This document shows, one piece after another, positions 4,604 through 64,000 of a stretch of 64,000 bases of DNA (position 1 is the first letter of the stretch; each line of letters starts with the position of its first letter). Origin of the DNA: Escherichia phage vB_EcoM-UFV13; the sequence record NC_031103.1; one strand, written 5' to 3'. The position numbers and the translations under genes were made by a program. The notes beneath the pieces were generated by a model. The model worked only from the letters and a program-made list of their open reading frames with translations, was not told the DNA's origin and did not search any database.

Positions 4604-4971
4604 TTAAATTTAATGGCTTGAAGAAGACTAATAATTCTCAAACGGCTTCTTTCATCTTTAACCGTAAATGAAAGAGGGTCGCCAGATTTCATAGTGATGG
4701 TGCATTCAAAATCAAAATCTTCTGTAACTTCTTCGAATAGGTCAAATTCTTCATCATAAATTAGAACATTACTCTGACAACTATGAAGAATTTTTCCATC
4801 ATTTCCAGAAGCTGTACTAATCATCGTAACATTGCGACCTTTCATATCTTCAACGATAAATTCGCTTGTAGATATTACAGCATTAATAGAACCATTCCTA
4901 TAAATAGCAGACATTAGATATTTCTTTTCTTCGCCTTCGCGAATACGATACTTCTTACCGATTTTAAACAT
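4600..4971 (-). CDS. hypothetical protein
   Basis: 123-aa ORF in same-strand array. Confidence 0.5.
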   Translation of the reverse strand: MFKIGKKYRIREGEEKKYLMSAIYRNGSINAVISTSEFIVEDMKGRNVTMISTASGNDGKILHSCQSNVLIYDEEFDLFEEVTEDFDFECTITMKSGDPLSFTVKDERSRLRIISLLQAIKFK

Positions 4972-15639: not shown

Positions 15640-15836
15640 TTTGAATGCTCTATAATTAATTTTAAGGCTTCTTCATGCACCTTACCTAATTGTATATGTC
15701 CAGTTTTAATTGTGTAAGCTTTGTGGAGCTGATTAGATAAGAGCTCGTATGTGAGCTCCTTGTCATAATTTTTAAATAGCTGGTCAATACGTTTCTTGTG
15801 GGCTTTCTTAAGCTGGCGTTTATTTAAACGAGCCAT
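15636..15836 (-). CDS. hypothetical small basic protein
   Basis: 66-aa ORF between soc and 56. Confidence 0.5.
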   Translation of the reverse strand: MARLNKRQLKKAHKKRIDQLFKNYDKELTYELLSNQLHKAYTIKTGHIQLGKVHEEALKLIIEHSK

Positions 15837-16354
15837 TAATAACCTCGGTCTTGACGAGCGAAGTTTTCAGCATTTTTCAGATAATAAAGTTTAAAGATTT
15901 CTTCAGCTGACATTCCAAGAGCAATGAATTTATTCATGAAAAAGTGAAATTGATCAATCAATTCAAATTTAATTTCAAGTTGATCTTCAGGAGATAAATC
16001 TTGAATTTTCTTGGATTGCATTTCAGAATAACGTTTCTTCCAAGGTTTCCATACAGCAGAAGCTTCTTTTTCGCCATTGCTCATACCACCAAGAGAAGTA
16101 TATAGCTCGCGAGTTTCGTCTGCGATATAATCGTCTTGGTTTCGCAACCAAGCAAGAACTTCTCCTGCAGTTTCAAGTGAATCAGGATGACGATTTGTTT
16201 CTGGTTTATCATTAGCCAAACGAATCTGTAAATGCCGCTGCATATCAAGCATAACCTGCAGTGGGTCAATATTGTGCATAATATTCTCAGCATATGCACG
16301 ATTTGCTTTATCAACACCTTCGATCAAATGAGCACATTCATTAAAGTAAGCCAT
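15836..16354 (-). CDS. 56: dCTPase/dUTPase gp56
   Basis: Internal ATG at 16354 gives MAYFNECAHLIEG... about 172 aa, matching T4 gp56 as recalled. Confidence 0.85.
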   Translation of the reverse strand: MAYFNECAHLIEGVDKANRAYAENIMHNIDPLQVMLDMQRHLQIRLANDKPETNRHPDSLETAGEVLAWLRNQDDYIADETRELYTSLGGMSNGEKEASAVWKPWKKRYSEMQSKKIQDLSPEDQLEIKFELIDQFHFFMNKFIALGMSAEEIFKLYYLKNAENFARQDRGY

Positions 16355-16388
16355 TATTTTTCCTTTCAATTCATGGGTTAGTAGATTA

Positions 16389-16413
16389 ATTATACAATAA
16401 ATATATAAAGCAA
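16389..16413 (-). promoter_or_regulatory. middle (MotA-box) promoter upstream of gene 56
   Basis: TTGCTTTA then 11 nt then TATAAT on minus strand. Confidence 0.5.
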
Positions 16414-16425
16414 TAAGGAGGACAT

Positions 16426-16626
16426 ATGGTACAAAAATTAATGGCACTTGTTAATGCCATCAAAGGTAATAAAAAACGTATAGCTTTTACTATTTCTGCT
16501 ATGGTAGGAATTTTACTCTGGAACTTTATTTTATCACCTGTTGCAATTGCACATGGTATTAATATTCCAGTAGTTACTCTTGATACATTTGTAGATTTAG
16601 CATTTGCTTTAGTTGGGTTAATTTAA
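16426..16626 (+). CDS. small hydrophobic protein on the opposite strand
   Basis: 66 aa; AGGAGGA 3-4 nt before ATG; fills the 56-61 gap; no competing minus-strand ORF. Confidence 0.4.
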   Translation: MVQKLMALVNAIKGNKKRIAFTISAMVGILLWNFILSPVAIAHGINIPVVTLDTFVDLAFALVGLI

Positions 16627-17651
16627 ATCTTAGCATATTTAGATAGCCGCATTTTAGCCATTAACCCCTGCGCAATATTATTTTTCATATATTCCATAAT
16701 CTGTTCAGGGGTTGCACCTTCCTTTCTAATCATATCATTGACATCTTTTGATTTCCAGGGAGATTTATCCCAAAACATAACCCTTTCTCCTGCATCAACT
16801 AATTTAGTCATTCGCTTGATAGTGTCAGGGTGACGAGGTTCATTATCTAAGACCCACACTCGTCTATCTTTAAATGGAACAACTTCTAGGTCTAATTGAC
16901 CACCCGTAATAGCTATACCATTTTCAATAAAAAGCGAATCTATAGGTCCTTCTAGAACATATACATCACCATCTTTAACTCGTTCAACACCGTAAATTTT
17001 TGTTGCCTCAGGATAAGCTTTGATGGTGATATACTTTTGTGGAGCATCTTTCTTTAATGCACGTCCTTGAAAAGACTCAGCTTTTCCATTTGCATTATAA
17101 ATTGGAATAACAAGACGAGGCTCAGAAATTTCCTTTTTGTATGTTCCCGGTGCTATGCTATTAACTAATTTAGGCCATTCGGTTGTAAACCAAAGATATT
17201 TCCATTTATCCTTTGGAATACAACGAGCTTTTACATATTTTATAATTGGATGGTCTTCCGCCAGTTTATCTAATCTAACACATGACGGAAGAGATTTAAT
17301 TATTTTCTTCTCAGGTTGTTTAGGAAGTTCTTTAGGTTTTTCTACTGGACGACTTTTACCTTTTTCTTTTCTTATTTCAAAGATATACTCACGATATAAA
17401 TCAGGTTCAAACTCCTTTAAATATATTCCGATTGGTGCGTGATAGTTACAGTTATAACAATGAATATTTCCTTCATTATTATCACCATAATACCATCCAC
17501 GGGCTTTATTTTGGTCGGTTTTTGAATCTCCACAAACAGGACATCTAAACCGCAATTTAAAAGTTGAACTATTATTTACTTGTGTGAATTTAGGTAAATG
17601 AGCTAATGCACGATATGCAAACTCATTATCAATCCAAGGTATTGATGACAT
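16623..17651 (-). CDS. 61: DNA primase gp61
   Basis: 342 aa; N-terminal zinc ribbon CPVCGDSK...CYNC; matches T4 gp61. Confidence 0.9.
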   Translation of the reverse strand: MSSIPWIDNEFAYRALAHLPKFTQVNNSSTFKLRFRCPVCGDSKTDQNKARGWYYGDNNEGNIHCYNCNYHAPIGIYLKEFEPDLYREYIFEIRKEKGKSRPVEKPKELPKQPEKKIIKSLPSCVRLDKLAEDHPIIKYVKARCIPKDKWKYLWFTTEWPKLVNSIAPGTYKKEISEPRLVIPIYNANGKAESFQGRALKKDAPQKYITIKAYPEATKIYGVERVKDGDVYVLEGPIDSLFIENGIAITGGQLDLEVVPFKDRRVWVLDNEPRHPDTIKRMTKLVDAGERVMFWDKSPWKSKDVNDMIRKEGATPEQIMEYMKNNIAQGLMAKMRLSKYAKI

Positions 17652-17653
17652 TT

Positions 17654-17818
17654 TTACTCTTCTTTTTCTTTAGATTCCTCTTTTTTCTTTTTAGGAATCT
17701 GTTCAGGACCTTTATTTACTATAGCACCTGACGTTGTTCCAGTGGAGATATTTTCAGGATTACCACCTGAATCTCCAGCTACCATATCTTCTTTGATAAA
17801 TTCTTTATATGTTTTCAT
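17654..17818 (-). CDS. 54-aa protein with capsid-targeting-like N-terminus (T4 61.1 position)
   Basis: Hand-translated MKTYKEFIKEDMVAGDSGGNPENISTG...; not in track; TAATATG coupling. Confidence 0.45.
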   Translation of the reverse strand: MKTYKEFIKEDMVAGDSGGNPENISTGTTSGAIVNKGPEQIPKKKKEESKEKEE

Positions 17819-17819
17819 A

Positions 17820-18176
17820 TTAACCTCTATTCATAAAAGCATTAAAAATTTGGTCATCAATTGATGGAACAGCAACCTTTTCTACATCATTTAACAAATC
17901 ATTAATTTCATCAGATAGCATAACGCATGTACCTTTATTTCCTGTAATTGTTACTGCGCAATTACGAACGTTTTCTTTATCAAATTTTAGGTTAATATTT
18001 TCGTAGTGAAAATCCTTTAATGCCGAATATATTTTTAAAATGAAATTGTCTTTTACTACAATAAAACCGACTTCACTATTAAAACGCGGCTCATGAAAAC
18101 TGTAATAAACCTTTTCATCTATAAAATCGTATGAAATTTTTTCCATTTTTAAATATGAAAATTCAGAACTATACAT
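17820..18176 (-). CDS. hypothetical protein (T4 61.2 position)
   Basis: 118-aa ORF between 61.1-like and sp. Confidence 0.5.
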   Translation of the reverse strand: MYSSEFSYLKMEKISYDFIDEKVYYSFHEPRFNSEVGFIVVKDNFILKIYSALKDFHYENINLKFDKENVRNCAVTITGNKGTCVMLSDEINDLLNDVEKVAVPSIDDQIFNAFMNRG

Positions 18177-18188
18177 ACTAACCTCTAA

Positions 18189-18482
18189 TTACTCACCTAC
18201 CACTTCAGCGATGATATTTTTATTATTGAAGTTTTTATCACAATACAGAACGTAATTATACTGCATTACACCACCAGACTTAAGTTGTTTTTGCACTTCA
18301 GCTTTCATTTCAGGACGATCACGCTCAACGATATTCATAATATCCGCTTCAATTTGAGTTTCAACTTCAGTCTGATCTGCAGTCATAGACCATTCACACA
18401 AATCTTTGTCATAACCCGCCATAGCAGGCTGAGCAGCGCAAGAAGATAAAGCAAAAATTGCAGCAAAGATAAATTTTTTCAT
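18189..18482 (-). CDS. sp: Spackle periplasmic protein
   Basis: 97 aa; cleavable signal peptide MKKFIFAAIFALSSCAAQPAMAG; size and position as T4 sp. Confidence 0.7.
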   Translation of the reverse strand: MKKFIFAAIFALSSCAAQPAMAGYDKDLCEWSMTADQTEVETQIEADIMNIVERDRPEMKAEVQKQLKSGGVMQYNYVLYCDKNFNNKNIIAEVVGE

Positions 18483-60093: not shown

Positions 60094-60307
60094 ATTTGAC
60101 TTCCTCACCAGTACATAAATCGTATTCAACTAAACGAATAGGTTCATGAATGCCATATCCCTGAACAGAAATTTCTGTCGTAGGATAAATTCCATTAATA
60201 TCACCCATGTTCCATGCTTCGTTAAATTGCTGTTCGCCTGAATTACTAAACCATTCGGCGAAAGCATTTAGCACATCTTTAGAACCTTCAATAATTATCT
60301 TTGCCAT
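60086..60307 (-). CDS. hypothetical small protein
   Basis: 73-aa ORF. Confidence 0.45.
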   Translation of the reverse strand: MAKIIIEGSKDVLNAFAEWFSNSGEQQFNEAWNMGDINGIYPTTEISVQGYGIHEPIRLVEYDLCTGEEVKYD

Positions 60308-60669
60308 TACAGACTCTCAGTAAAGGTACGAGCGATAACGTCGCGCTGCTGTTCCGGAGTCAGAGAGTTAAAGCGAACTGCATAACCGGATACGCGGATG
60401 GTCAGCTGCGGATATTTTTCCGGATGCTTAACTGCATCTTCCAGAGTTTCACGACGCAGAACGTTAACGTTCAGGTGTTGACCACCTTCAATTTTAACTG
60501 TAGGCTGTGGCTCAATTTCAATTTCACGGGCATGCAAACCGTAGAAAATTTCTGGGTCTACAAAAGAGTCCTCTTTAAAGGTTTTAGAGACAATAATTCG
60601 TGCTTGAATACCATCTTCAAAATAAATAGTACCTTTATGCGTGCCTTCAAGAATTTGATATGCTTTCAT
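60307..60669 (-). CDS. autonomous glycyl radical cofactor (GrcA/YfiD-like)
   Basis: C-terminal half matches E. coli YfiD/GrcA incl. RVSGYAVRF; 3' half markedly more GC-rich. Confidence 0.85.
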
Positions 60670-60676
60670 ATAAACC

Positions 60677-61006
60677 TCAATTAGAAAATAAATTTATCCA
60701 AGATTGTTCTTTAATTAAAAACGGCTCAGAATCATATGCCATTAAACTCTGCGTGATTAGTCCTTTAAAAGGTCCATCAATAAATTCCATGGTAAAATAT
60801 GGAATTTTATTCATTAGCCGTGCATTAGGAGCAGTACACAAAACTCTGCATCCTTTGAATACGCCTTTTTGTAATTTGTATTGCTTAGGATAAAATTCGC
60901 TCAAGACGTTGTTATTTGCCAAAATTTCAAAATGATTCACCAATTTATTTTTAATAGTTTTTGGCGAAAAATAAAGATATTCGAAAAGCTGAGTGTCTGT
61001 CATCAT
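60677..61006 (-). CDS. hypothetical protein
   Basis: Internal ATG at 61006 (MMTDTQLF...). Confidence 0.45.
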
Positions 61007-63355: not shown

Positions 63356-63382
63356 AATTTCCTCCAAGTAGTTGATGAATGT

Positions 63383-63412
63383 ATAGTATCAAAACCCTTG
63401 GAGGAAGTAAAC
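63383..63412 (-). promoter_or_regulatory. early promoter upstream of denV
   Basis: GTTTAC-18-TACTAT. Confidence 0.55.
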
Positions 63413-63413
63413 A

Positions 63414-64000
<587 letters not shown>

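Follow-up and report, generated by a model that had tools for sequence, protein, structure and literature searches.

In phage T4, dam lies between gene 56, encoding a dCTPase/dUTPase, and gene 61, encoding the DNA primase, and this 56-dam-61 locus (NC_000866 16270-18963; X01416) is among the closest described counterparts of the junction analysed here. The gap between dam and 61, 310 bp, is without an annotated gene in NC_000866.4. Upstream of 56/69, the middle promoter P(M)16.53 is annotated in X01416 and, according to the T4 annotation, its transcript is the primer of oriA, which is annotated in NC_000866. T4 middle promoters consist of a MotA box, (a/t)(a/t)(a/t)TGCTTtA, located 12+/-1 bp from TAtaaT (PMC2988021). 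Among 50 listed T4 late promoters, 32 have a perfect TATAAATA box and 9 have an A at -13 (Geiduschek and Kassavetis, PMC2988020), and an A+T-rich segment just downstream of the box is a further feature of T4 late promoters (PMC2988020). A second point of reference is T4 soc, a small late-type gene with a TATAAATA-class box before a strong ribosome-binding site, which is found amid early and middle genes.

The stretch of DNA analysed here (the window) comprises 64 kb of a genome of about 167 kb. Megablast comparisons identified it as belonging to Tequatrovirus, the T4-like phages, with 100 % identity to Shigella phage Shfl2 between positions 15800 and 17700; in its first 25 kb, it is ~96 % identical to PP01 and ADUt. 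None of the records matched it perfectly from end to end. The gene order matches that of T4 from rIIA onward, and the local order is soc, soc.1, soc.2, 56, a small ORF, 61, 61.1. Gene 56 (15836-16354, minus strand), annotated as dCTP pyrophosphatase in hundreds of relatives as well as in Shfl2, whose sequence is 100 % identical at this locus, starts at the ATG at 16354, and the listed 203-aa ORF that initiates with GTG is an upstream extension of it. Gene 61 occupies 16623-17651, also on the minus strand. The small ORF (16426-16626, plus strand; 66 codons) is convergent with gene 61, and the stop codons of the two overlap. We hold with reasonable confidence the joint reading that this is a compact, dam-less 56-61 locus that includes a genuine, likely late gene for an inner-membrane protein, for which a holin-like role can be guessed.

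An earlier, sequence-only reading of the window had described a short 56-61 junction containing the sole convincing plus-strand gene, a 66-codon ORF with a strong ribosome-binding site. All of this proved sound. The measured gap is 268 bp (56 start at 16354, 61 end at 16623, both on the minus strand), and the Shine-Dalgarno sequence of the small ORF, AGGAGG (16416-16421, plus strand), is 4 nt before the ATG, with GGAGG present in all homologous loci read. The remaining long plus-strand ORFs are shadows of minus-strand genes. This includes those at 60301-60684 and 63379-63723, which are antisense to slightly shorter minus-strand genes and were rejected. In Shfl2, where the junction is identical to that in the window, the first 50 kb have no plus-strand CDS other than the small ORF, and a minus-strand ORF covering it was not found in the window.

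The window does not contain a dam-like ORF, as had been reported from the sequence alone. The best tblastn match to T4 Dam had an E value of 0.76 over 28 aa, and the methyltransferase motif (D/N/S)PP(Y/F/W) is absent from all ORFs of at least 100 codons in the six frames of the 64-kb window. The accompanying statement that T4 dam lies near gene 56 is also correct, as dam is between 56 and 61 in NC_000866. However, the suggestion that the small ORF fills the gap left by dam was wrong. T4 carries both dam and the same ORF (97 % identical), and the ORF therefore does not stand in for dam. In T4, the starts of gene 56 and of the ORF are separated by an additional 881 bp, which is missing from the window and is made up of dam (780 bp) and ~100 bp of the dam upstream region. 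Phages with dam have it between the small ORF and the middle promoter of gene 56. The window and the T4 locus thus have 56, 61, a MotA-type promoter and the small ORF in common. They differ in that the late-type box of T4 is in a separate spacer beside dam, whereas in the window it is inside the spacer of the middle promoter, because the 881 bp is missing. As a consequence of the same difference, the 71-bp intergenic region of the window holds two back-to-back control regions, and forms a compact divergent promoter with the controls of gene 56 on the minus strand and those of the ORF on the plus strand.

The 56-61 locus of the window is of the compact type, without dam. Approximately 500 phage records include the small ORF (>=90 % identity) versus ~180 with a T4-type Dam (>=90 %), making the dam-less junction the commoner state; dam is present in T4, T2 and about one-third of the Tequatrovirus records. 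Among records named as Shigella phages, 62 have the junction DNA and 19 have any Dam-like match (E <=1e-20), and it follows that many of the dam-less phages do not have a Dam elsewhere. These counts argue, indirectly, against a dam gene elsewhere in the genome from which the window comes. The absence of dam is a known accessory-gene polymorphism and is ordinary. It matters little, as phages of this group naturally lack dam more often than they carry it, and GATC methylation by the phage is therefore not expected here.

The small ORF has several names. RB32ORF030w (the name used in RB14/RB32), Shfl2p035 and phrog_2024 all refer to the same gene, and the window copy is 100 % identical to Shfl2p035 and to the corresponding gene in dozens of records. 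Members of the RB32ORF030w family (phrog_2024) are labelled hypothetical protein and share the position and orientation beside the primase gene that are seen in the window. The match of the window protein to the phrog_2024 profile is full length (E 1.4e-31, residues 2-66 versus profile positions 1-65 of 65). The unannotated T4 gap between dam and 61 contains the ORF (4739-4939 of the extracted T4 locus sequence), with 2 conservative amino acid differences and 3 synonymous differences from the window copy, and newer automated annotations of T4 and T2 do call it. Hence, the gene is already catalogued as a hypothetical protein, but this small gene, conserved across T4-like genera, is left out of the T4 reference record. 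Literature searches by gene name, for T4 ribosome profiling and small proteins, and for T4 start mapping found nothing on this gene, and transcript, ribosome-footprint or peptide evidence for the ORF was likewise not found in the literature.

The location between 56 and 61, on the opposite strand and convergent with 61, is kept in at least seven T4-like lineages. In other genera, the orthologues are 55, 49, 34 and 27 % identical to the window protein and keep the length (60-70 codons), the GGAGG ribosome-binding site and the convergent position beside the primase gene. Homologues are also found in non-T4 phages, in another gene context. A profile search of 1.8 billion representative proteins recovered 20 clusters, all of small proteins. 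Four residues (W32, N33, P38 and G44) do not vary across the 20-sequence alignment, and in a wider set of 23 sequences only P38 is invariant, with N33 and G44 nearly so. In a comparison of six Tequatroviruses, the variable sites are distributed 8/2/11 over codon positions 1/2/3, all of the replacements are conservative, and the pairwise dN/dS for the more distant pairs is 0.1-0.3. According to these sequence comparisons, the ORF is under purifying selection. It is a genuine protein-coding gene of T4-like enterobacterial phages, including T4.

Upstream of gene 56, a MotA-dependent middle promoter is predicted at 16389-16415 (minus strand). It includes a MotA box, TATTGCTTTA (16415-16406), an 11 nt spacer and a -10 element, TATAAT (16394-16389), and fits both the MotA-box consensus and the 12+/-1 spacing. 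This predicted promoter is homologous to T4 P(M)16.53. The Shine-Dalgarno sequence of gene 56, GAAAGGAA (16360-16367, minus strand), is conserved in T4 and relatives. T4 origins such as oriF and oriG consist of a middle promoter and a downstream unwinding element. The possibility that the small ORF forms part of oriA was considered and rejected, as the ORF is upstream of the promoter and the unwinding element of the origin would be expected downstream.

On the plus strand, a late-promoter-like box, AATAAATA (16396-16403), is found 22 nt upstream of the ATG of the small ORF, inside the spacer of the opposite-strand middle promoter, and from its position transcription is predicted to start near 16409-16410. 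An A+T-rich segment, TATAAAG, directly follows the box, which fits the late-promoter feature described for T4. The sequence-only reading had noted a late-promoter-like sequence and described it as an imperfect match. The match is not a poor one. It is the A(-13) variant of TATAAATA and, given that 9 of the 50 listed T4 promoters have this base, it represents the commonest natural variant. Only six 8-mers corresponding to TATAAATA or AATAAATA are present on the two strands of the window. One of these is just upstream of the ORF annotated as Soc in Shfl2, and a late promoter is recorded at the equivalent spot in X01416. The small ORF differs from soc in strand and in box: soc shares its strand with the early genes around it and has a perfect box, whereas the small ORF is on the opposite strand and has the A(-13) variant, and its late transcription is a prediction.

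Of seven divergent lineages, six have a sequence of the form xATAAATA at 12-22 nt before the ATG. The box is GATAAATA in T4, AATAAATA in APCEc01, CATAAATA in both PSD2001 and PhiKR8, and a perfect TATAAATA in IME523 (Kanagawavirus); S16 has ATTAAATA. The boxes in T4 and S16 are rarer deviations and count against a late promoter. A box is kept in T4 despite the unrelated, dam-side upstream context, and this suggests selection for it. A sigma-70-like site was not found on the plus strand. The comparisons support a late-type promoter as the likeliest one for the small ORF, which would most likely be transcribed late. RNA polymerase directed by gp55/gp33/gp45 would start from AATAAATA, and the ORF would then stand alone as a late gene, oriented opposite to ~60 kb of early and middle genes. 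Across the ~60 kb of early genes, no other late-type gene seems to lie on the opposite strand, and the putative promoter box of the small gene is nested in the middle promoter that primes replication origin A.

The hydrophobic character that had been noted for the product of the small ORF is supported by structure prediction, which gives a 27-residue hydrophobic helix. In the AlphaFold model (20-sequence alignment; mean pLDDT 78), helices are predicted at residues 2-12, 16-42 and 52-62, and correspond to a basic N-terminal helix, a transmembrane helix (~16-42) and, after an (A/T)HG..P loop, an acidic amphipathic C-terminal helix. The loop is conserved and the C-terminal helix is short. The hydrophobic helix is flanked by five Lys/Arg residues on its N-terminal side and by two Asp residues on its C-terminal side. 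According to the positive-inside rule, the basic side of a membrane helix is cytoplasmic. On this basis, the N-terminus is probably in the cytoplasm, and the conserved 24-residue acidic tail would be periplasmic or interfacial. We infer that the product is a 7-kDa inner-membrane protein with a single transmembrane helix. A Pfam search with the window protein found no match, even at an E value of 10. A fold search against viral structures recovered only the family itself and noise, and a helical model of 66 residues contains little fold information.

A remote and weak resemblance to holins was detected via more distant members of the family. The Rhodobacter GTA holin is a member of PF11351 (GTA_holin_3TM). 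The holin TeaA of ICP1 has been assigned to PF11351 as well (PMC7182436). Four of 23 members of the small-protein family match the C-terminal half of PF11351 (positions 66-117) with scores of 13.6-15.3 bits, all of which are below the PF11351 gathering score of 24.8 bits. Two members match phrog_3427, labelled 'holin' (E 5e-4 and 2e-3), in a consistent register. A tblastn search from a distant member reached a Pseudanabaena phage (Pan1) gene annotated as 'GTA-like holin', and hhalign comparison with the family of this protein gave a probability of 90.5 % and a score of 38.3, though the Pan1 family is itself sub-threshold for PF11351 (11 of 12 members match, all sub-threshold, best E 0.0017). 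Control scores were 13-14 for reversed alignments, 9.9 +/- 2.2 for column shuffles and 12.3 +/- 3.6 for local shuffles in which the hydrophobicity profile was kept, the highest score of the latter being 23.6. PF11351 and the window family both comprise small phage membrane proteins, and the stretch over which the distant relatives align to PF11351 covers a hydrophobic helix with an aromatic-N/R-aromatic...P pattern, then a G..P loop and the acidic beginning of the helix after it. However, PF11351 has three transmembrane segments, whereas the model of the window protein has one 27-residue hydrophobic helix and an 11-residue C-terminal helix. With matches below 24.8 bits and one transmembrane helix rather than three, the small protein was not filed as a PF11351 member. 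The 'Holin' label on the OE5505 homologue in UniRef/BFVD is an automated name and was given no weight.

The gene context differs between lineages. In T4-like phages, the genes for endolysin, holin and spanin (e, t, spanin) all lie away from the small gene. In non-T4 phages, the homologue is co-directional with, and follows, tail-tip and endonuclease VII genes, which speaks for late expression. The distant homologue P0100 is three genes upstream of a T4-type lysozyme gene (Phage_lysozyme), on the same strand and in a late operon, but this neighbourhood is found in one distant lineage only; in the others, the lysozyme gene is either 3 kb away on the other strand or not in view. Mutants of T4 in gene t do not lyse, and the small protein therefore cannot be a sufficient holin. 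Because of the remote similarity to the C-terminal half of GTA_holin_3TM and the distant homologue in a lysozyme-containing late operon, our best guess, and a tentative one, is that the product may be a membrane protein resembling the holin family and modulating either permeabilisation of the membrane or the timing of lysis. The fuller version, namely an unrecognised late membrane protein that is distant kin of GTA_holin_3TM and controls permeabilisation, lysis timing or lysis inhibition beside the T holin, is somewhat doubtful.

The dam-less state could be a secondary deletion from a Tequatrovirus ancestor that had dam at this site. Dam homologues with 45-60 % identity are found in other T4-like genera (Slopekvirus-like and RB49-like phages), so dam is old in the T4-like group, and the window's single promoter is similar to those flanking T4 dam, both of which points favour a deletion. 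However, 56-ORF-61 without dam at the site is found in five further genera or lineages, the compact layout being seen in Mosigvirus (APCEc01), Gaprivervirus (PSD2001), Gelderlandvirus (S16), a Klebsiella T4-like phage and a distant metagenomic T4-like contig. The site has also accepted other inserts, an HNH endonuclease gene at the dam position in ECO07P3 and an extra small pyrophosphohydrolase-like gene at the 56-61 site in IME523, and no remnants of dam sequence are visible in the 71-bp intergenic region of the window. A deletion thus seems rather unlikely, and insertion of dam in the T4/T2 lineage is somewhat more likely than loss here, with dam probably an accessory cassette at a plastic site. 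Two further alternatives concern the ORF itself. It might be untranslated, with the segment kept as the 3' UTR or terminator of 41-61 and as upstream elements of the gene 56/oriA promoter. The minus-strand hairpin and U-run inside the ORF, the near invariance of the 5' third of the ORF within Tequatrovirus and the missing annotation in the T4 reference record would all be accounted for in this way. The persistence of frame, length, GGAGG and key residues (WN(F/Y), P, G, P) down to 27 % identity would not, nor would the dN/dS of 0.1-0.3 or the homologues in a different context in non-T4 phages. As it is the protein and not the DNA or the hairpin, both of which fade across lineages, that is apparently kept outside Tequatrovirus, a purely non-coding role is very unlikely and we give it almost no credence. 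The last of these alternatives is that a late plus-strand RNA, antisense to 61 and opposing the 56 promoter, silences both messages, with the peptide secondary. The window has no plus-strand terminator after the ORF, the ORF overlaps the end of gene 61, and for some T4 sites, transcription of both strands at different times has been described (PMC2988020). However, elsewhere the ORF and 61 are separated by a hairpin (GGGGCTTTGGCCCC in PhiKR8) or a spacer (108 bp in PSD2001), and antisense read-through is therefore not conserved, unlike the protein sequence, making silencing of this kind improbable as the main role of the locus.

The holin-like role has a further competitor. The product may be a real late membrane protein with a role unrelated to lysis, the resemblance to holins being due to a shared helical-hairpin shape; blocking of superinfection or DNA entry, countering of a host defence and a membrane role in assembly are options. 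Every similarity to a holin family is sub-threshold, in T4-like phages the gene lies at a distance from the lysis genes and has other small genes that act on the envelope (e.g. spackle) around it, and the fold search finds only the family itself, all of which speaks for a role outside lysis. Shape by itself explains less well why the profile-profile score is well above that of the controls that preserve hydrophobicity, why several distant members align to both PF11351 and phrog_3427 in a consistent register and why a co-directional lysozyme gene is present in one lineage. We consider a non-lysis role possible, but with no great conviction. If the preferred, holin-like character is true, T4 lysis control has an unstudied component, and if the role is in the control of lysis, the small protein would be a new player in one of the best-studied lysis systems.

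Finally, the hairpin inside the small ORF has features of its own. On the minus strand, an 11-bp hairpin followed by UUUUUG is located at 16438-16463 (-14 kcal/mol, z -3.8). It corresponds to codons 5-13 of the ORF and lies a short way upstream of the promoter of gene 56. Six Tequatroviruses have this segment without any change, and inspection of the Mosigvirus sequence revealed no similar inverted repeat; from this comparison, the hairpin appears to be specific to Tequatrovirus. Within Tequatrovirus, hardly any change, even at synonymous sites, is seen over the first 75 nt of the ORF, and some of the conservation may therefore be at the nucleic acid level, for example in the minus-strand hairpin, which may be an intrinsic terminator or a stabiliser for the 41-61 transcript.

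Among the phages related to vB_EcoM-UFV13, the junction between genes 56 and 61 differs in what it carries. In T4, dam separates gene 56 from the promoter/ORF block; in exactly this place, Escherichia phage ECO07P3 has an HNH-type homing-endonuclease-like ORF of 216 aa (locus L012, 480-1130), and on the basis of this coincidence the junction is an insertion hotspot. A further, different extra gene is carried by IME523 (L007, 1436-1720), where the small ORF was not annotated. The same omission was found in the T4 reference record NC_000866.4, in which no CDS is annotated in the 310-bp gap between dam and gene 61. The conserved 66-aa ORF is present there at about 17738-17938 (L002, 4739-4939); the annotation of this model genome is incomplete at this point.

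A second presence/absence difference was found within 2 kb. In the window, a 118-aa ORF33c-like gene is followed directly by spackle (17820-18482), whereas in Shigella phage Shfl2 (L001, 6021-7298) and T4 the 627-bp gene 61.2 is located between them. The difference from Shfl2 exists despite 100 % identity of the two phages across the 56-61 junction.

In Klebsiella phage Phi_KR8 and in PSD2001, the small ORF does not run into gene 61, and the spacer that separates them contains a G+C-rich hairpin (L008 1960-1985 in Phi_KR8, with the sequence GGGGCTTTGGCCCC; L006 1990-2100 in PSD2001). These hairpins look like bidirectional terminators between convergent genes, and are consistent with the small ORF being a separate transcription unit. 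In the window, codons 5-13 of the small ORF hold an 11-bp hairpin on the minus strand, followed by UUUUUG (16438-16463; z -3.8). The hairpin lies a short way upstream of the gene 56 promoter and may be a terminator or stabiliser of the 41-61 transcript. No comparable hairpin was evident in the Mosigvirus sequence. The first 75 nt of the small ORF are near-invariant in six Tequatroviruses, and as this includes synonymous sites, the alignment suggests that the 5' part is under dual constraint.

GATC is the most strongly depleted 4-nt palindrome in the 64-kb window, with 64 occurrences against 207 expected from trinucleotide frequencies (O/E 0.31), followed by TCGA (O/E 0.57). The scarcity of GATC is notable in that there is no dam gene within the window; one possible cause is avoidance of restriction or of host functions directed at GATC.

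Distant members of the small ORF family, phrog_2024, were found in metagenomic contigs. One, P0093, directly precedes a RelA_SpoT-domain protein of 352 aa (L015, 129-1383), a pairing seen in one case, on a 2 kb contig. Others (L016, 5001-6610; L019, L022 and L023) belong to a non-T4 phage lineage with a kept gene order, namely tail tip, a 94-aa gene, endonuclease VII, the phrog_2024 member itself, a gene of ~180 aa and one of 105-109 aa. The conserved block is followed by a T4-type lysozyme in L016 and L017, and L023 also includes a T4_Cef-like gene. Phage lineages appear to share T4-type accessory genes.
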